In this document: in pieces, positions 3,703 to 45,542 of the stretch
How positions within the stretch are numbered: position 1 is the first letter of the stretch
How the letters are laid out: every line of letters starts with the position of its first letter
IMG/VR virus record: IMGVR_UViG_3300025087_000090
Coordinates: 1-52,237 of that record
Length of the DNA stretch: 52,237 nt
Source: a virus
Taxonomy: Duplodnaviria; Caudoviricetes
Direction: 5' to 3' (one strand)
Program-made: the position numbers and the translations under genes
Notes under the pieces: model-generated
What the model saw: the letters and a program-made list of their open reading frames with translations, nothing else
Told to the model about the DNA's origin: nothing
The model's database searches: none

Positions 3703-3832
3703 GAGGGAAATAACTACAACATACAAAATCCATAACTGTAAAAGGCTCGTCAGCCAAAACGATTGGTTCATTGTATCTACAACCTATTGTCCATTCTGCA
3801 AGGAGATTCTTAATGCTCCGACGACAAGTTGA
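3665..3832 (+). CDS. Small zinc-ribbon protein
   Basis: HNC...YCPFC; begins MLRRQV like the downstream polymerase. Confidence 0.5.
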   Translation: MLRRQVWLIKHPEREITTTYKIHNCKRLVSQNDWFIVSTTYCPFCKEILNAPTTS

Positions 3833-5555
3833 AGGCTCAGGCCCACTTGACTCACCAGTACTCTTATTGGGGGAGGCTCCAGGCTCTACCGAAGTGGCAG
3901 GGATTCCTTCTAAGAATATCCTCCCCTCTCCATTCATAGGTTGGAGTGGTCAGTTTCTCCAAGAAATGTGTGAGAGGGCAGGCATAGACTTCTGGAACGG
4001 AATTAGACGAGACAATGTCGTCCAAGAACAGCCCTATAAAAACGACTTCTCTATCTACTACCGAGACAAAGCTCAAAGGGAGCCAACCCCTGAGCTCTTG
4101 GCTTGGTATGCTGACCTAAGGCGTCGTATTCTCCTCCAACGCCCAAAGGTTATAATTGCAGCAGGGGATCAACCTTTGTTTGCCTTGACAGGGAACAAGA
4201 GCTCTACCAAATGGCGAGGCTCAGTTGTTCCATACCAATCCCAAGACCTCAACTGTTGGATAGTGCCCATAGTCCATCCATCCTATGCTCGTCGATGTTT
4301 CAATATGACCTCCTCGAAAAGGAAGGAAGTTCGTCAGCCTTGGTTTCATATTACTGTCTTTGATTTGATCAAGGCTAAGAGGGTGTCTCAAGAGGGATGG
4401 AAGCCTTTGGAAAGGGTGGAGAAGATATTCCCATCTTACTATGAAGTTATGGAGTACCTCGACCAACTTCTCTCTATGCCCTCAGACACTTTAATCACCA
4501 CTGACGTTGAGACAATTCGACGAGAGCATATTAAATGTGTGGGCCTTACTCACTCCAAAGACTACGCCATGTGCATCCCCTTTGTAGCGAGTGGAGCAGG
4601 GAAGCCTTATTATTCCATCGTCCAAGAAGCTGAAATTTGGCTCATGCTTGAGAAGGTGTTCTCTACTCATCTACTCTGCGGCCAAACCATAGCCTTCGAC
4701 GCTGCTATGTTTTGGAGAGACATAAAAGGGTTTGAATTAGAAGAGTCTGTCCACATAGACACAGCGATCCTTCACTCTCTCTTATACCCCGAGCTCAAAC
4801 ACGATCTTGGTTTCCTCGCTTCTATCTACACCGATATGCCATACTTTAAGTACCTCGGTCGGCTCTCTGAGAGCAAGTCCAACATAGGCCAGACTTTTGA
4901 GTATAACTGCTTCGACGTCCAATCCACCCATGAGTGTGCGGAGGAGCTTATCAAAGAGGCCAAGCGAGAAGGTATGTGGGATTATTATCTCTCAAAGAGA
5001 TTGCCTCTTGCTAAATGGGCCATTCGACAGCATAGACATGGGCTAAGTATAGACGAAGGTCGAAGAGAGACCATCCTCAAGAGCCTTTGGTATGAGGAGA
5101 TCCTTCCTCTCCAAACCATGCTTGATGAGTGTCTATGTGAGGTAGGTTGGCTCGGAGCTTGTACTTTTACCAAGACCAAAGTTAATAAACTTCAAGCTCT
5201 TGGCCTTGATGTTGATGGTACTCAAGAGGGGTTGAATACAAGCTCCCCTCAGCAGGTGGTGGCTTTGCTTAGAGCTTTGGGGTATGTGGTCTCTGATTCA
5301 AGCGAGGAGACCTTAACCTCACTTGCTGAGAGTTCAGTAGTGGCAAAGGCCATCTTGCAACTAAGGTCAGGATTCTCTCTCCTCACCTCCGTTGCTAAAC
5401 CTACCGATAAAGATGGAAGGTTTAGAACCTCTATTAATCTCCATGTTACTGAAACCACTCGGTTGTCATCTACCAAATCCCACTATGGTGGAGGAGCAAA
5501 TATGCAAAATGTGACGAGAAAGGCACGGCCTTTGTTTTGTGGAGGTGTGGAATAA
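3813..5555 (+). CDS. polA: Family A DNA polymerase, N-terminal gene: UDG family-4-like domain, 3'-5' exonuclease, thumb and start of palm
   Basis: LLGEAPG..E, PFIG.SG and HPSY (UDG-like); TDVET, AFD and YNCFDV (Exo I-III); TTRLSS and NMQNV (PolA). Ends just before motif A. SD AAGGAG before ATG 3813. Confidence 0.9.
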   Translation: MLRRQVEGSGPLDSPVLLLGEAPGSTEVAGIPSKNILPSPFIGWSGQFLQEMCERAGIDFWNGIRRDNVVQEQPYKNDFSIYYRDKAQREPTPELLAWYADLRRRILLQRPKVIIAAGDQPLFALTGNKSSTKWRGSVVPYQSQDLNCWIVPIVHPSYARRCFNMTSSKRKEVRQPWFHITVFDLIKAKRVSQEGWKPLERVEKIFPSYYEVMEYLDQLLSMPSDTLITTDVETIRREHIKCVGLTHSKDYAMCIPFVASGAGKPYYSIVQEAEIWLMLEKVFSTHLLCGQTIAFDAAMFWRDIKGFELEESVHIDTAILHSLLYPELKHDLGFLASIYTDMPYFKYLGRLSESKSNIGQTFEYNCFDVQSTHECAEELIKEAKREGMWDYYLSKRLPLAKWAIRQHRHGLSIDEGRRETILKSLWYEEILPLQTMLDECLCEVGWLGACTFTKTKVNKLQALGLDVDGTQEGLNTSSPQQVVALLRALGYVVSDSSEETLTSLAESSVVAKAILQLRSGFSLLTSVAKPTDKDGRFRTSINLHVTETTRLSSTKSHYGGGANMQNVTRKARPLFCGGVE

Positions 5556-5773
5556 TGTTGTCTAAAAAATATTTCATATCAGGTACGTACTTTACAAGAC
5601 AAGAGATAACTCAAGACGAATTTGTTAAAGCTGAGCGAGCTCATGGATTTTATCCAAAATATGGTCTTGGTCCTGAGGCAACAGGAGGCTTTTCATGCGG
5701 TTTGATTTGGTACTCTATTGAATACAATGATATGGAGGAGAAGGATGAAACGCAAGCTCCTAATCGAAGCTGA
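5555..5773 (+). CDS. Small hypothetical protein inserted between the two polymerase genes
   Basis: TAATG stop/start overlap, SD GGAGG, 72 aa (EITQDEFVKAERAHGFYPK...ATGGFS). Confidence 0.65.
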   Translation: MLSKKYFISGTYFTRQEITQDEFVKAERAHGFYPKYGLGPEATGGFSCGLIWYSIEYNDMEEKDETQAPNRS

Positions 5774-6521
5774 CCTCTCCCAAGCTGAGGCAAGAGCAGT
5801 AGCCTACTACTGTGGTGATGAAGGCATGAAAAACCTCTTCAAACAAAAGATCGACATCCATGTCGACAGAGCCTTGATGATCTTAGAGGTCGAGGAGAAA
5901 CATTATGAATATGAGGACTTTAAACAAATGTACGTTGATGGAAACAAACTTGCAAAACAATATCGACAAGGAGCTAAAGCTGTTGGTGTCCATGCTACCA
6001 ACTACGACGTCGGCCCTCGCACAGTTGTTAATTCTCTTAGACACCATGGGATCTTCCTTAGCACACGACAAGAAAAATGTCTCCGAGCTAATACACACAA
6101 CAGATTTCCTGGTATCCGATTATATCAATATGGTGTACAGCAAGCTCTCAAATCCTCTCGTACTCTCCATACCGCCAAAGGAATGAAACGCTACTTCTTT
6201 TCCAAACTTGACGACAACACCTTCCGTCGAGCCTATGCCTTCCTCCCTCAATGCACCGTGGCGGAGATAACCAATGATGCCATTGTAAAAATGGAGCCTT
6301 TGATTCGAACCTTGGATGGCTTTGTTCTCCTCCAGGTCCATGACTCTGTATTGGTTGAAGTGCCTGAGAGAAATGTCCAAGAGGCCTATGAGATCATAGT
6401 GTCCTCCATGACTCAACCCATAGATGTCTACCCCTTCTATGGAGACTCTGATGTTATGACCATACCTGTGGATGTCAAATGGGGCACTCATTGGGGGGAG
6501 CTAAGAGATTGGACAAACTAA
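5745..6521 (+). CDS. polA: Family A DNA polymerase, C-terminal catalytic gene (motifs A, B, C)
   Basis: ADLSQAEAR (A), RQGAKAVGVHATNY (B), LLQVHDS (C); own SD GGAGGAG before ATG 5745. Confidence 0.9.
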   Translation: MKRKLLIEADLSQAEARAVAYYCGDEGMKNLFKQKIDIHVDRALMILEVEEKHYEYEDFKQMYVDGNKLAKQYRQGAKAVGVHATNYDVGPRTVVNSLRHHGIFLSTRQEKCLRANTHNRFPGIRLYQYGVQQALKSSRTLHTAKGMKRYFFSKLDDNTFRRAYAFLPQCTVAEITNDAIVKMEPLIRTLDGFVLLQVHDSVLVEVPERNVQEAYEIIVSSMTQPIDVYPFYGDSDVMTIPVDVKWGTHWGELRDWTN

Positions 6522-39804: not shown

Positions 39805-41050
39805 ATTTGAATTCCAATGGGGAGGGACTTAATGTTCAAAAAATATAAACACTTTATAAAGCTATATTGCAAGATGAATGGGCCTTTTCCTCTCCCCACC
39901 CCCGGTCCTATCCTGGGGGTCATGGGGTGGGGTAGAGTACTATGGTTCATTAGAGTACTCTTGCTTGTAAACTTTGGTCTTTATGTTTTTATAGTTATAT
40001 ATAAAACACTCTATGTTATGAGGACTATAAGGCAGTAGGATGTGGTTGGAATTAATGGGGAATTAATTCCTACCATGCTGGTATGGATTGCTTAACCCAC
40101 TTAGCCCATGGGTTCCCTATGTAACCCCTTTATATCATTACCTTTTTAGCGTAATAAAAACGGATAATTGGTAAGCTATGGACTTTACTCACCTTTCTCC
40201 TTTTTTTCTCAAAAAATATCCAGCGTAATAAAAAATTAATACAAGAGCCCCATGGGGTCTAAGTGTCTAATATCACTCCCCTTTACCCCAAATAAAATTT
40301 AAAATTAATAAAATATCCAGTTTTAGGTCGGATATGCCCCTTTTTCGAACACTTTCTTCGAATCTGAACACTTTAAGGCCGCTCTACCCATAGCGCTCTA
40401 CTGTTCACGCAGAGCACTCTTAGTGTTTAAAATATAAAAAAAAATAAACAAAGAGTAATATATACCTGGATAATAGCCCTCTTTAGTGTTCAAAAAAAGG
40501 CCCTTTTCGGAGAGTGGAGATATTTTATTATTCTTAGTGATATTAAGGGGTTAGTGTGTTATTGCATTGGATATTTTTTACTACACCGATAAAATGAAGG
40601 ATTTCAGGGGGTTAGGGAGGGAGGATTTTGGAGAATTGTGGACTTTGGTGCGATATGATGAACCTATGTTCATAAAACGACTTTTCAGAAAAAATTAGTT
40701 TACTAAATAAAGTGTTTACAATGGGGTAAGTAAGTGGTTTCACTAACCTTTTCACCCATTTTTGCCGTAGAAAATGGGGCTTTGAGGTCTAACTGTTTTA
40801 TTTTTTTGAACAGGATTTAAAATGACGTAAAATGTTCTTAAGATATCATAGCAATTTGATATGAATTGATTTAAGCCCCATGACAAGCCTGTAAGGACCG
40901 GCCTGGAGATTTGCCCGCCTTGCGCCCCATGCGCCCAGCCACGCCAGCCAAACGAAGGATTCTGACCCATTTAATAGCCCATTATAGGCAATAAAAAAGG
41001 GCCGCCCGATTAGCGGCCCTGGAACGGATAACACTTCCTATATAGTAACA
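39805..41050. other. AT-rich non-coding control region (candidate origin, packaging or genome-end region)
   Basis: No credible ORFs; A/T tracts; four copies of an 18-bp motif; half-sites of the 21-bp palindrome. Confidence 0.55.
40993..41020 (-). terminator. Intrinsic terminator of the small leftward operon
   Basis: Minus strand AGGGCCGC-taatcgg-GCGGCCCT followed by TTTTT. Confidence 0.8.
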
Positions 41051-41054
41051 ATTA

Positions 41055-41294
41055 TCAAATAGCCTGTAGCACTCTGGCCGTTTCATACAGCCTATCCCTA
41101 ATAGCTCTCAGCTTAGGAATAGCTACCTTGTCATATTCACTCTTTTTCATTCTCCCATTCTGCCACAAGGTCTTATAGTACTCTGTTTCAGCGTGATAGC
41201 TCTCCCATAGGTAGGCGAATTGTTTACTCAAAATCTCTTTATCAGAGAGTGGTAAGTTTTCCATGGCCTTTTGAAGCCGTTTAGCGGATAGCAT
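41055..41294 (-). CDS. Hypothetical early protein
   Basis: SD AGGAGG. Confidence 0.6.
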   Translation of the reverse strand: MLSAKRLQKAMENLPLSDKEILSKQFAYLWESYHAETEYYKTLWQNGRMKKSEYDKVAIPKLRAIRDRLYETARVLQAI

Positions 41295-41297
41295 CTT

Positions 41298-41447
41298 TCA
41301 ATCCTCCTGTTTAGGTTGGGGCCAAATGATAATAAACCTACTTCCAGGAATACCGTTTATACAATAGGAAAGTAAAATACCATTCCTATCATAATGGGTA
41401 TCAAAAAACCAAAACTTTCCAATTTTAACCTTTTTAAAACCTCTCAT
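41298..41447 (-). CDS. Hypothetical 49-aa protein
   Basis: SD GGGAGG; MRGFKKVKIGKFWFFD... Confidence 0.5.
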   Translation of the reverse strand: MRGFKKVKIGKFWFFDTHYDRNGILLSYCINGIPGSRFIIIWPQPKQED

Positions 41448-41461
41448 ATTTCCTCCCATGT

Positions 41462-41494
41462 AAAAGGGGAGAGTGCTATAAAAGCCACTCTCCC
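41462..41494 (-). terminator. Intrinsic terminator after the 41891-41502 gene
   Basis: GGGAGAGTG / CACTCTCCC stem, followed by CTTTT on the minus strand. Confidence 0.65.
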
Positions 41495-41501
41495 TATTGG
41501 A

Positions 41502-41891
41502 TTACACCTGGGCCAGCAAGTCCTTTGCACTCTGTTCCGTGGTGGCGCACATAGCCGTGATTTTGTCGGTGGTCAGCTCATGGCTCGGGTTCTTAATCAT
41601 ATAAGCCTTGAGAACCCTATCGACATCACCCTTTGCTAACTTAAACAAGGTTTGAATCAAAGCCTTGTCTATGGTCTTACCCGCCGGTGCAGCAGCACCC
41701 AGGGGCTTCACATCATAGAGCTTACAATACTCCCGAATCCTCTCACTTCGGAATTTGTTCGTAAGCTTGATATCCCCTTTGCTCTCATCGGGAACCGGGA
41801 AGCGGAAAGAGACCGCTTCAAAATTCCCGTCAGACTCCATGCCGGGTTTATAATTCTCCACTTTGAAAGAAACATAATCGCCTTTAGCCAT
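41502..41891 (-). CDS. Hypothetical early protein
   Basis: SD AAGGAG; first gene after the leftward sigma-54-type promoter. Confidence 0.7.
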   Translation of the reverse strand: MAKGDYVSFKVENYKPGMESDGNFEAVSFRFPVPDESKGDIKLTNKFRSERIREYCKLYDVKPLGAAAPAGKTIDKALIQTLFKLAKGDVDRVLKAYMIKNPSHELTTDKITAMCATTEQSAKDLLAQV

Positions 41892-41942
41892 AAATAGAAC
41901 TCCTTTTAGAGAAATTAGGTTTTTGAATCTGATATATAACTA

Positions 41943-41958
41943 TGCACACACCATGCCA
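41943..41958 (-). promoter_or_regulatory. Sigma-54 (-24/-12) promoter, leftward
   Basis: Minus strand TGGCATGGTGTGTGCA, GG-N10-GC, about 50 bp upstream of ATG 41891. Confidence 0.6.
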
Positions 41959-42128
41959 TAGGACTATGGAGAGAGGGAAATAATTCTTTCATAAGTGCCT
42001 AATATCATTACAGAAAACAAACCACTTTTGCCAAACTGCTCAAAATTTAATCTAAATGTTTCAAAATCTTAACATTCATTTTCAAGAAAGTTTACAAATT
42101 AACCCATTTCAGCCAAAATCCCCAATAA

Positions 42129-42141
42129 AATCAATCACTTA
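42129..42141 (+). promoter_or_regulatory. IHF-binding consensus
   Basis: AATCAATCACTTA matches WATCAANNNNTTR, midway between the divergent promoters. Confidence 0.5.
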
Positions 42142-42296
42142 CCTCAGTATTACTTTTTGAACCAAAATCACCCCCTTTGTTCACCTATTAAAACATAGAG
42201 CACTATTTTGCCCATACTCTCCTGGATAACTCGGTTTAGAGTGGTAAACTATTGAAATCATTAAAGAAATTGAATTTTGCCTAATTTTGCCCATTT

Positions 42297-42312
42297 TGGC
42301 ATAACCCTTGCA
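42297..42312 (+). promoter_or_regulatory. Sigma-54 (-24/-12) promoter, rightward
   Basis: TGGCATAACCCTTGCA matches TGGCAY-N5-TTGCW. Confidence 0.72.
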
Positions 42313-42451
42313 ATTAAGATTATCCATTATATGTGCGCCCCATGGCCGGGTTCAGCCATGGCAGGGAATCAAATGTTCATAAAAGATAAACACTTTAAGA
42401 GTGTTATAATATTGGAAAGAGCACAAGGTAAGCTAAAAGGAGCCCTTTAAA

Positions 42452-43929: not shown

Positions 43930-44745
43930 ATGAAACTCCCCACCTCTCCTCAATCGCCCAACCTCTCTCCGCACGCCTTCAACTGGCTCTTCATGGGAGC
44001 CACAGATGGTATAGGGAAGAGCTCCATGTTGGCCTCTGTAAATTACTCACTCTCAGATAATGAGCCCAAACCACTCTTAATCCTTGATCCCGACCAATCC
44101 TGCAAAGCTCTCCCTGGTTATATCCTCGACATCTTAACTTGGAGAGACGCCTTAGAAGTCCTCCGCATGGTTAAAAGTGGAAAGGAGGATTTGTCTCTTT
44201 ATTCAGGAATTGGAATAGATAACCTCAATATATTCCATGATAAGCTCTTTGAGGACTTCGTTCGTCGTGAGAAGCACCCTGGTGACGCTAATGACATGGG
44301 GAAAACTTGGAATAAGCTTACAAGAGAGTGGACCTCATGGCTCAGGGACATACGCATAGCCTCCCCTGGACTCTTCATGGCCACTTGCCACTCTAATATC
44401 ATAGAGCTCAAGATCAAAAACACTCCCTTCAACCGCTACGTCCCTGCCATTCCTGGAGGTGGGCCAAGGGGTGCCTACCGGCAAACCATGGAAATGTTTG
44501 ACATCATTGGGTTCCTCACCAAAGAGGGTAGTGAAGAAGCAACCAAACCACCCAAAGACGCCAGAGCAGATACACTTGCCATCGTAGCTAAGGAGCAGGT
44601 AGTTATCCACTTCCTCCCATGTCAATATTGGGAGGCAAAGGATAACTCTCGTCAACTGCCCCATAAGATAGTGCTCTCAGAGGATTGGAAAGAGGATTGG
44701 AATGCTATTCTTGGTAAATGGGGACCAGAGAATTGGGAGAAGTAA
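43930..44745 (+). CDS. AAA_24 / Sak4-like ATPase (single-strand annealing recombinase)
   Basis: GATDGIGKSS (Walker A), LILDPD, GIDNL (Walker B), TCH, FDIIGFL, AKDNS. Confidence 0.8.
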   Translation: MKLPTSPQSPNLSPHAFNWLFMGATDGIGKSSMLASVNYSLSDNEPKPLLILDPDQSCKALPGYILDILTWRDALEVLRMVKSGKEDLSLYSGIGIDNLNIFHDKLFEDFVRREKHPGDANDMGKTWNKLTREWTSWLRDIRIASPGLFMATCHSNIIELKIKNTPFNRYVPAIPGGGPRGAYRQTMEMFDIIGFLTKEGSEEATKPPKDARADTLAIVAKEQVVIHFLPCQYWEAKDNSRQLPHKIVLSEDWKEDWNAILGKWGPENWEK

Positions 44746-44757
44746 GCTCTTTGAAAA
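44746..44757 (+). promoter_or_regulatory. boxA-like antitermination element
   Basis: GCTCTTTGAAAA resembles rrn boxA (TGCTCTTTAACA); heads the non-coding array. Confidence 0.55.
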
Positions 44758-44769
44758 CCGAATAAGAAT

Positions 44770-45400
44770 TGCGCTGAGGGGTGGATGGGAAAGCCCATGG
44801 GAGTTGCGCCTGACAGCAACACACCCCAAGGTGCATACGATTTTGCGCTAATGAAGCGGCGGGCGTGGACGTGCCACGCTGAATAACGGCTAACCCTGGA
44901 TACTGGCTCGGGTCTTGAGGATGTGCTTGAATGCCAGGCCCGCTTCGGAGGCGCATACGATTTCCTGGACCTGGCTCTTTTTCTACCCCTGAAACCGGGA
45001 AGTCCGAGCCGTAAGAGACATGCAGCCCGTAAGTGAGGGTAGCCCCCGGGGGACGCCCTGGGCAGGCAGAGGCTGAAAACGGGGAAATGTGCCGGTGAAC
45101 TATTCCAGGTCCAGGGATTCATTTCAAAGTTTCCTATCGTCTGGCGGCGTGGCAGGCATGTTCACGCTGGGTAAGGGTAGGGCAAATATGCCTTATTAAA
45201 CTGTGGATGGTGGTGCCAGAGTGGGGAATCCTGGCCTAAACGATAGGGAAGTTTTAACGAAGTACCCCGTTATGATTTGTGGGGTGGATAGTAGAAATCT
45301 ATTGCAAGCATGGACGAGGTGCACCAAATCCATGCCCAGAGACTCTGGGTTAATGACCCGAACACCCCAGACCCTTTAACGAAGTGCCCCAACGGGCAAG
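44770..45400 (+). ncRNA. Tandem array of five structured non-coding RNA units
   Basis: Each unit is closed by its own long-range stem, and units are separated by short repeated A/U-rich linkers. No SD-led ORF on the plus strand. Confidence 0.7.
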
Positions 45401-45542
45401 TGGCTTATTTTATTAACTCCTAAGAGGAGCCCATGAGGACGTGCCAGAGCTCATGAGCTCCAAGGAGGAAAAGAAGATGAGATATGTTTATGGACAGAGT
45501 GGAGGCATTGAAAGCGAATACTAAAGCCAAAAGGAGAAACCC

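Follow-up and report, generated by a model that had tools for sequence, protein, structure and literature searches.

A GC-rich cassette downstream of a Sak4-like gene

The window analyzed here is the complete IMG/VR record IMGVR_UViG_3300025087_000090, 52,237 bases of a groundwater phage with an estimated completeness of 61%. Its structural genes (large terminase, major head protein, SU10-type adaptor, tail spikes) lie on the minus strand between ~9.3 and 39.8 kb, and a densely packed plus-strand arm of small genes, each led by a Shine-Dalgarno (SD) sequence, runs from ~42.3 kb to the end of the record and continues at 1–9.2 kb. Within this early arm, immediately 3′ of a gene for a Sak4-like protein and in the same orientation as every neighboring SD-led gene, lies a cassette of ~660 nucleotides (nt), from 44746 to ~45405, which starts with a boxA-like word and falls into stem-closed units. 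Judging from its sequence, the most likely product of the cassette is a set of several folded RNAs, which would form an undescribed family. Its parts, with the upstream gene, are as follows.

43930–44745, plus strand: gene of the Sak4-like single-stranded DNA-annealing protein, 271 amino acids (aa), phrog_124, E 2.7e-21; upstream neighbor, outside the cassette
44746–44757, plus strand: boxA-like word GCTCTTTGAAAA (GCUCUUUGAAAA), with which the cassette opens immediately behind the Sak4 stop codon
44746–44781, plus strand: leader module, in which a 12-nt spacer separates the boxA-like word from the beginning of the first hairpin (UGCGCUGAGGGG); on three contigs of the soil run X13
44770–44835, plus strand: unit 1 (U1), predicted Y-shaped fold with a 6-bp outer stem UGCGCU/GGUGCA, a 6-bp inner stem GGGGUG/CACCCC and two hairpins
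44829–44843, plus strand: linker repeat A, copy 1, AGGUGCAUACGAUUU; comprises the outer stem's 3′ strand and a U-rich tail behind it; direct repeat family D2
44844–44955, plus strand: unit 2 (U2), UGCGCU..GAAGCGG/CCGCUUC..GGCGCA; outer frame as in unit 1, different interior
44949–44963, plus strand: linker repeat A, copy 2, AGGCGCAUACGAUUU; family D2, with 93% identity between the two copies
44959–45120, plus strand: unit 3 (U3), inverted repeat I4 with 16-nt arms at 44959–44974 and 45105–45120 and an interior hairpin at 45045–45062
45130–45250, plus strand: unit 4 (U4), 10-bp closing stem UUCCUAUCGU/ACGAUAGGGA with one G·U pair; variable inner hairpin at 45215–45235
45253–45268, plus strand: linker repeat B, copy 1, UUUAACGAAGUACCCC; direct repeat family D1
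45280–45369, plus strand: unit 5 (U5), closed by a 7-bp stem and holding three hairpins, cloverleaf-like in outline; direct repeat family D4
45375–45405, plus strand: linker repeat B, copy 2, and terminal module; family D1; right end of the cassette

The stems, repeats and coordinates that an initial annotation, made from the letters alone, had listed for 44746–45400 are all present in the sequence at the places it gave, and its assignment of the upstream gene to Sak4 is borne out by the PHROGs match. It had also described the block as GC-rich and placed it in a gene-dense arm, within the early operon; the GC content is indeed 0.56–0.60 at 44800–45199 against ~0.42 in the flanks. The plus strand is G-rich and C-poor, with a positive GC skew in every window of 44700–45399 (+0.03 to +0.28). 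The proposed division into stem-closed modules was likewise recovered, as five units of 66–160 nt that each have their own closing stem; the core of the U3 stem is perfect over 11 bp (44964–44974/45105–45115), and the U4 arms CCTATCGT/ACGATAGG stand at 45133–45140/45240–45247. Where the annotation spoke of about 800 bp without an SD-led open reading frame (ORF), the absence holds, but the length is ~730 bp (44746–45476), because an SD-led mini-ORF of 15 codons occupies 45477–45524.

The linker repeats of the cassette amount to two pairs of 15–16 nt, the copies being 120 and 122 nt apart. The linker A word AGGYGCATACGATTT occurs at both 44829 and 44949 and the linker B word TTTAACGAAGTRCCCC at both 45253 and 45375, which puts the same 16-mer directly after U4 and after U5. 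U1 and U2 have a common outer frame (UUGCGCU ... AGGYGCA-UACGAUUU) that encloses unlike interiors, and U1 and U5 have UGNGGGGUGGAU and the closing CACCCC in common. From these resemblances it looks as if duplication inside a shared frame, together with replacement of the interiors, had enlarged the cassette.

Coding capacity and known RNA families

There is no plausible ORF on either strand of 44746–~45405, which agrees with the non-coding reading in the initial annotation. On the plus strand of 44746–45476 no ORF exceeds 58 aa and none is preceded by an SD sequence. Each plus-strand frame contains 9–16 stop codons of at least two kinds, so that no single stop reassignment opens a frame, and an alternative genetic code was dropped as a reading. 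The sole long ORF (156 aa) is on the minus strand and overlaps the 3′ end of Sak4; a search of 5.8 billion clustered proteins and a HMMER search through the full 1.84 billion representatives returned only its self match. None of five ORFs of the block had a match in Pfam. With stops in every plus-strand frame, no relatives of the 156-aa ORF and no Pfam match, we dropped a protein on either strand as a candidate.

The block also belongs to no named RNA family that we could detect, in line with the earlier reading. Searches of the window with the 4227 covariance models of Rfam 15, which include ROOL, GOLLD, OLE, group I and II introns, ribozymes, riboswitches, RNase P, 6S and Y RNA, gave no match at the gathering score. 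At E-values up to 10 the single match was mir-1306 at 44603–44644, outside the block; two sub-stretches searched separately gave none, and neither did the Rfam tRNA model at this threshold. ARAGORN at default settings found no tRNA or tmRNA gene in the whole window, and at lowered thresholds it made no call at 90%, one at 80% and four overlapping calls on both strands at 70%. One of the 70% calls coincides with U5; we took it as noise and rejected tRNA-like genes. Several further candidates were considered by eye. Short words reminiscent of the cores of RNase P, group II domain V, hammerhead, twister and hepatitis delta virus (HDV)-like ribozymes had no covariance-model support; a CsrA-type GGA sponge, judged by eye only, was not counted; and a miniature inverted-repeat transposable element (MITE) or insertion sequence (IS) was rejected, no terminal inverted repeats being visible at the ends of the cassette.

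The block in relatives of the Sak4 locus

Sak4 homologues (n = 11, 47–90% identity) all carry PF13479. A search with an alignment of Sak4 proteins yielded nine loci, one viral and eight metagenomic, leaving out the relatives at 90% (P0001) and 82% (P0002) identity; the search with the single Sak4 protein gave no related loci and the alignment search of genome_contigs none. Nucleotide similarity to 44746–45410 was found in none of the nine loci. In all eight with readable downstream DNA, small ORFs follow directly after Sak4; the remaining one (L014) stops 123 nt past Sak4 and is uninformative. The decisive locus is L015, which matches the Sak4 end of the window, then the intergenic stretch from ~45410, and then the downstream 75-aa ORF (84%). 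Between the matching flanks, the slot that is filled by the 660-nt block in the window holds a 59-aa CxxC-rich ORF in L015. As judged from these loci, the block is an accessory insert, a discrete cassette that is not in the relatives.

To the right of the cassette, 45410–45542 on the plus strand contains a 16-nt palindrome (GGAGCTCATGAGCTCC), a 7-codon ORF and the SD-led 15-codon ORF at 45477–45524, and a folding window over this region has a z-score of −4.0. The right-flank intergenic stretch is conserved in L015 (4985–5044) at 85% over 46 nt, and L015 has the 75-aa gene in place of the mini-ORFs.

Another locus, L008, whose Sak4 is 60% identical, has an ORF-free block of its own at 4642–4900 on the plus strand, ~0.9 kb 3′ of Sak4, with a GC content of 0.51. 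It can be closed by a long-range stem (UUCCAGGG/CCCUGGAA) and folds with a z-score of −2.44 (5 of 200 shuffles as good). It had no Rfam match and no convincing similarity to the units of the window; homology with U4 was rejected, as it came down to a shared 8-mer that is present four times in the window. The L008 block may be an analogous RNA cassette.

Recurrence in environmental sequencing data

A k-mer search showed that 17 DNA runs from 10 studies of groundwater, soil and sediment contain part of the block, nine of them at least half of its words; two of the 17 are possibly the source sample. Three runs (X8, X11, X12) have near-identical copies. The soil run X13 is more informative about the borders of the modules. 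There, 44745–44781 occurs on three contigs with one difference each, the flanks being unlike the window before 44745/44746 and after 44781, and the leader is followed by a shorter hairpin. U3 (44959–45117) is present on one contig at 96% identity, with 6 differences and both flanks unlike. A further contig carries 45316–45400 with 5 differences, followed by a GAGG-ATG gene start, and 45375–45405 is found on the two deepest contigs (depth 21.8 and 16). The interior of U1 and the sequence preceding U3 differ to the point of being unalignable. These borders place the left edge of the cassette exactly at the boxA-like word and its right edge near 45400–45405, and they mark U3 as a separately conserved block whose ends fall at most 3 nt from the predicted closing helix. 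As the X13 contigs are short unitigs, the order and linkage of the pieces are not shown by them.

In X11, positions 45207–45236 of U4 have 6 changes in 30 nt, whereas the neighboring contigs have 0 in 151 nt and 2 in 108 nt. This segment appears to be a local hypervariable hairpin, and such a concentration of changes would be unusual for drift alone.

In assembled collections, blastn against phages and against plasmids gave no useful homologue. Exact patterns from U3 and from the leader found no homologue in IMG/VR, and the whole L008 record gave nothing useful. The linker pattern matched six IMG/VR loci without extended similarity; of the two patterns built on the U1/U2 frame, one matched once, in a coding region of a 360-kb contig, and the other not at all. 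A two-linker pattern matched 58 loci in genome_contigs, none with blastn similarity to the block. Five named genomes and 802 genomes sampled from two phyla gave only matches of 24–41 nt, with E-values of 0.0007–0.009 per genome, which is the chance level for 400 genomes. Support from beyond the window is real but thin.

Folding of the units and structure-preserving changes

The initial annotation had described five self-folding RNAs. Compared with shuffled sequences, this description stood for U1, U4 and U5, but U2 and U3 fold no better than their shuffles. The statistical case for self-folding is good for the following three units only (MFE, minimum free energy).

44770–44835, plus strand: U1, MFE −32.7 kcal/mol, z −3.73, equalled by 0 of 200 shuffles; minus strand z −0.87
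45130–45250, plus strand: U4, MFE −47.1 kcal/mol, z −3.42, equalled by 0 of 200 shuffles; minus strand z −3.7
45280–45369, plus strand: U5, MFE −31.7 kcal/mol, z −2.93, equalled by 1 of 200 shuffles; minus strand z −2.8

For both U1 and U2, the plus strand is the one that folds better.

The copies in other runs contain a few natural changes that preserve predicted structure. The analysis of U3 covered five listed X13 differences. Among them, C45047–G45060 is replaced by U–A, a two-sided compensatory change, U45074·G45081 becomes C–G, and A45031G falls into a loop (GUAA to GUGA). Placed on the reference structure, the X13 variant has an energy of −65.3 kcal/mol, compared to −65.5 for the window; among 2000 random sets of five substitutions, 1.2% keep the energy as well and 1.7% contain a compensatory double change. 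In the U4 hairpin at 45215–45235, the X11 copy has C45217–G45233 changed to U–A, A45218–U45232 to G–U and A45220·C45230 to G–C.

The boxA-like word

For boxA, the published consensus of E. coli is UGCUCUUUAACA and that of B. subtilis AUGAUCUUUGAAA (PMC13753749); the gamma-proteobacterial one is GYTCTTTAANA, with a critical C at position 4 (bioRxiv 10.1101/091223). The word that heads the array, GCTCTTTGAAA, agrees with the last of these in 10 of 11 positions and keeps C4. It deviates solely at position 8, where it has the G of the B. subtilis consensus AUGAUCUUUGAAA, and the word in the window, AAGCUCUUUGAAAA, contains UCUUUGAAA of the B. subtilis rrn consensus in the same source. The annotation's boxA-like head was thus recovered at the exact left edge of the cassette, on the sense strand and upstream of a long untranslated stretch.

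The word at 44746 is the only plus-strand match in the window to GMTCTTTRAMA, a pattern that unites the consensuses. If up to 2 mismatches are allowed, the E. coli 12-mer occurs 11 times in the window where 5.9 are expected, which says nothing. What gives the word its weight is its position: it stands first after the Sak4 stop codon and first in the untranslated block, and conservation in X13 sets in with it. We regard it as a putative loading site for NusB/NusE that would confer resistance to Rho.

Interpretation

We tentatively read 44746–~45405 as an accessory array of modular structured RNAs that is co-transcribed on the plus strand, led by boxA and protected by Nus factors, and give this reading a probability of roughly 0.4. 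The cassette would be horizontally exchangeable, and the early transcript of the phage would include it in plus-strand orientation. Its boxA-type word and the following hairpin would load Nus factors and so render the polymerase Rho-resistant over ~660 untranslated bases. The transcript would then fold into five stem-closed modules that act as structured RNAs, and these might be released at the U-rich linkers (UACGAUUU; UUUAACGAAGURCCCC) by a host endoribonuclease. What the analysis shows is that the block lacks coding capacity, is an insert, has recognizable module borders and carries a few natural changes that spare its predicted structure; transcription, Nus dependence, linker cleavage and a trans-acting role or target are steps that we infer from the sequence.

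The interpretation in the initial annotation is supported in part, namely for a non-coding, GC-rich series of stem-closed modules with a boxA-like head and no named family, and is narrowed in its folding signal, which is limited to U1, U4 and U5. Its further proposals, processing into separate small RNAs and a role as decoy against anticodon nucleases, type III toxins or CRISPR, are unsupported. Toxin, Cas and nuclease genes were absent among the neighboring proteins scanned with PHROGs, Pfam and PADLOC, the last of which found nothing in 10 neighboring proteins. Looking for a retron or a defense-associated reverse transcriptase (DRT), we found no reverse transcriptase domain in the scanned proteins (10 against Pfam, 10 against PHROGs, the neighbors, and 10 with PADLOC; small ORFs scanned in part).

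A number of results weigh against the array reading. On the side of folding, U2 (44844–44955, plus strand; MFE −46.6 kcal/mol) has a z-score of −1.75 with 13 of 200 shuffles as good (minus strand −1.0), and U3 (44959–45120, plus strand) one of −1.04 (minus strand −1.0). The z-scores of all units are flattered because their bounds were chosen at stems. In unbiased 120-nt windows, the mean z-score is −0.67 inside the block compared to −0.25 outside, peaks being confined to windows that coincide with U1, U4 or U5, and the block as a whole reaches −1.5 (equalled in 2 of 20 shuffles). The closing stems exceed chance only slightly: there are 7 perfect long-range inverted repeats of at least 7 bp against 3.9 ± 2.0 in shuffles, a number reached by 32 of 300 shuffles, and the 11-bp stem of U3 is equalled in 21 of 300. 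The natural changes have their own weaknesses. U45059G breaks a G·U pair in U3; the U4 hairpin was picked after the changes had been seen and lies outside the reference MFE structure, for which the control gives 0.20 and which the X11 variant fits badly (−37.4); and the alifold controls are not significant (0.09 for U3, 0.12 for U4). With bounds, windows, repeats and alifold controls this weak, the structural case is suggestive, not proven.

Other points on this side concern the reach of the data and the proposed mechanism. No full-length homologue was found in phage, plasmid, IMG/VR, species-representative or sampled genomes, which precludes a real covariation test. The comparison of copies took in 4 of 19 listed runs (X8, X11, X12, X13) with contigs of 31–266 nt, a thin sample, and there were no RNA runs among those that the k-mer search listed as containing the block. 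GMTCTTTRAMA occurs twice in the window against a chance expectation of 0.44, and 6 of 100 shuffles have at least two. Within the cassette we found no sigma-70 promoter or intrinsic terminator on the plus strand, nor did we find a processing enzyme, and cleavage at the linkers is something we purely infer.

A bolder version of the array reading, which we consider doubtful, is an "RNA moron island": a portable cassette with its own Nus-loading site and independently exchangeable structured RNA modules in a shared frame. Such a cassette could be inserted into any early operon, because its own loading site for Nus factors would avert Rho cut-off, and its modules would be swapped, shortened or diversified between phages, as might be seen in U3 being kept at 96%, the interior of U1 replaced and the U4 hairpin hypervariable. 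This pattern of module exchange is like that seen for counter-defense protein genes.

Two other readings keep the block as RNA. If it were one multi-domain ornate RNA of ~660 nt that folds, and perhaps multimerizes, as a whole, in the manner of ROOL or GOLLD, this would suit its size, GC-richness and phage location, which resemble those of ROOL and GOLLD, as well as the lack of promoters and terminators between modules and the retention of leader, U3 and 3′ end in X13, though on separate short contigs. Several 7-nt complementarities span unit borders, but they are at chance level; there is no match to ROOL, GOLLD or any other Rfam family even at E-values up to 10, and no tRNA nearby. We think a single RNA unlikely; the unequal conservation of the modules in X13 (96% in U3, with the U1 interior and the sequence before U3 unalignable) is better explained by independent modules. 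A purely cis-acting leader, in which boxA and the first hairpin form a nut- or put-like antitermination site and the remaining structure stabilizes or times the downstream early genes, would account for the hairpin 12 nt after the boxA word, an order known from lambda nut, for the leader being the piece that X13 keeps, with a shorter hairpin after it, and for a block that sits inside an operon with no terminator behind it and abuts a GAGG-ATG gene start in X13. Yet a nut or put site requires ~50–70 nt, not 660, U1 is more than a simple boxB-type hairpin, eight relatives have the same downstream genes without the block, and U3 is conserved at 96% in a different context, distant from the leader; we hold a leader of this kind to be distinctly unlikely.

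The remaining two readings dispense with a functional RNA. We judge it improbable that the block is functionless acquired DNA, a fragment of a GC-richer donor decaying in a variable slot with stems formed by chance. Its composition is indeed unlike that of the phage, the folding statistics are modest and the assembled collections searched contain no homologue; but neither strand retains a trace of a protein, near-unchanged copies are found in runs of several studies, modules that recur in another context are 94–97% conserved and end there at the predicted unit edges, the observed U3 changes spare the predicted structure better than 98.8% of random sets, and the arm of the phage is otherwise tightly packed. 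A DNA-level element, that is, a replication origin or a recombination or packaging site whose inverted repeats act as DNA, seems highly improbable to us. It would be at home next to a recombination gene, inverted and direct repeats are present, and U4 and U5 fold equally well on both strands. However, the block is GC-rich, not AT-rich, its direct repeats have two copies each with no iterons or tandem repeats, it is missing from eight related phages that must replicate too, and the changes to G–U (A45218G) and from U·G to C–G fit a plus-strand RNA. DnaA-box-like words are not enriched in the window (18 against 13.9 expected), and an origin marked by DnaA boxes was dropped for this reason.

Other features of the window

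Between the divergent structural and early arms, 40039–42451 contains AT-rich stretches (GC 0.34–0.35), few ORFs and several promoter-like sites on the plus strand; it probably serves as the early control region. Two plus-strand ORFs, 3771–5555 and 5718–6521, separated by ~160 nt, share the family A DNA polymerase between them, and the first of these has a domain of the uracil-DNA-glycosylase superfamily at its N-terminus. The 3′ end of Sak4 has two repeats of its own. At 44601–44647 (plus strand) there is a 19-nt inverted repeat, 84% complementary with a 9-nt gap, whose left arm includes the DnaA-box-like TTATCCACT; folding windows over it reach z-scores as low as −2.4 (plus strand) and −4.2 (minus strand). 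At 44679–44702 (plus strand), in the part encoding the C-terminus, the 12-mer AGAGGATTGGAA is perfectly duplicated in tandem and encodes the repeated EDWK/EDWN.

Comparison with known systems

CRISPR arrays and RNA anti-CRISPR repeats have direct repeats of ~28–37 nt with regular short spacers, and ToxI-like type III antitoxins consist of tandem ~36-nt repeats beside an endoribonuclease toxin gene. The cassette resembles the precursors of all three in having short conserved sequences between variable segments, which is suggestive of processing signals. It has, however, two 15–16-nt repeat pairs only and no tandem array; TRF found no tandem repeat in the block, and the PADLOC scan described above gave no hit beside it. 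T4 has small stable RNAs that are co-transcribed with tRNAs in phage tRNA clusters, and such clusters are like the cassette in their head-to-tail, stem-closed units without promoters of their own; U5 even has a cloverleaf-like outline with a 7-bp closing stem. The difference is that the units of the cassette are not tRNAs according to ARAGORN (default and 90%) or Rfam.

In rrn leaders and lambdoid nut sites, as in the cassette, a boxA-type word opens a long structured untranslated stretch, and in the cassette a hairpin follows 12 nt later. In rrn leaders it is rRNA or tRNA that comes after boxA, neither of which follows the word here. A lambdoid nut site has boxA, then a short boxB hairpin with a GNRA-like pentaloop, and works together with an N-type protein; the cassette has a branched 66-nt fold in place of the 15-nt boxB hairpin, and no N-like protein was recognized among its neighbors.

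Phage early regions are the site of host-takeover and counter-defense functions, of which, to our knowledge, almost all those known are proteins. Against this background the cassette would be of interest as a protein-free, modular element that a tightly packed genome has kept, that is met again in data from soil, sediment and groundwater, and that appears to bring its own antitermination-type word. If it is not transcribed, it is merely an oddly composed insert. If our reading is true, it would provide a compact test system for the protection of untranslated RNA in phage operons.

Further parallels are ROOL and GOLLD, RNAs of phages or prophages with no known function; GOLLD is often longer than 800 nt, with a conserved 3′ and a variable 5′ region. 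The cassette is like them in being phage-borne, GC-rich, hundreds of nucleotides long and composed of many helices, with a function still unknown. It differs in having neither a covariance-model match nor a tRNA island, and in its separately closed and separately conserved modules with repeated linkers. Nothing similar came up when the literature was searched for large phage RNAs and for boxA in connection with non-coding RNA of phages, which is a thin basis for calling it unpublished. The kind of element, a phage-borne structured RNA behind boxA, is known, whereas this family and its modular cassette form are undescribed in the material searched; if true, it would be a new structured-RNA family beside ROOL and GOLLD among the large phage RNAs of unknown function.

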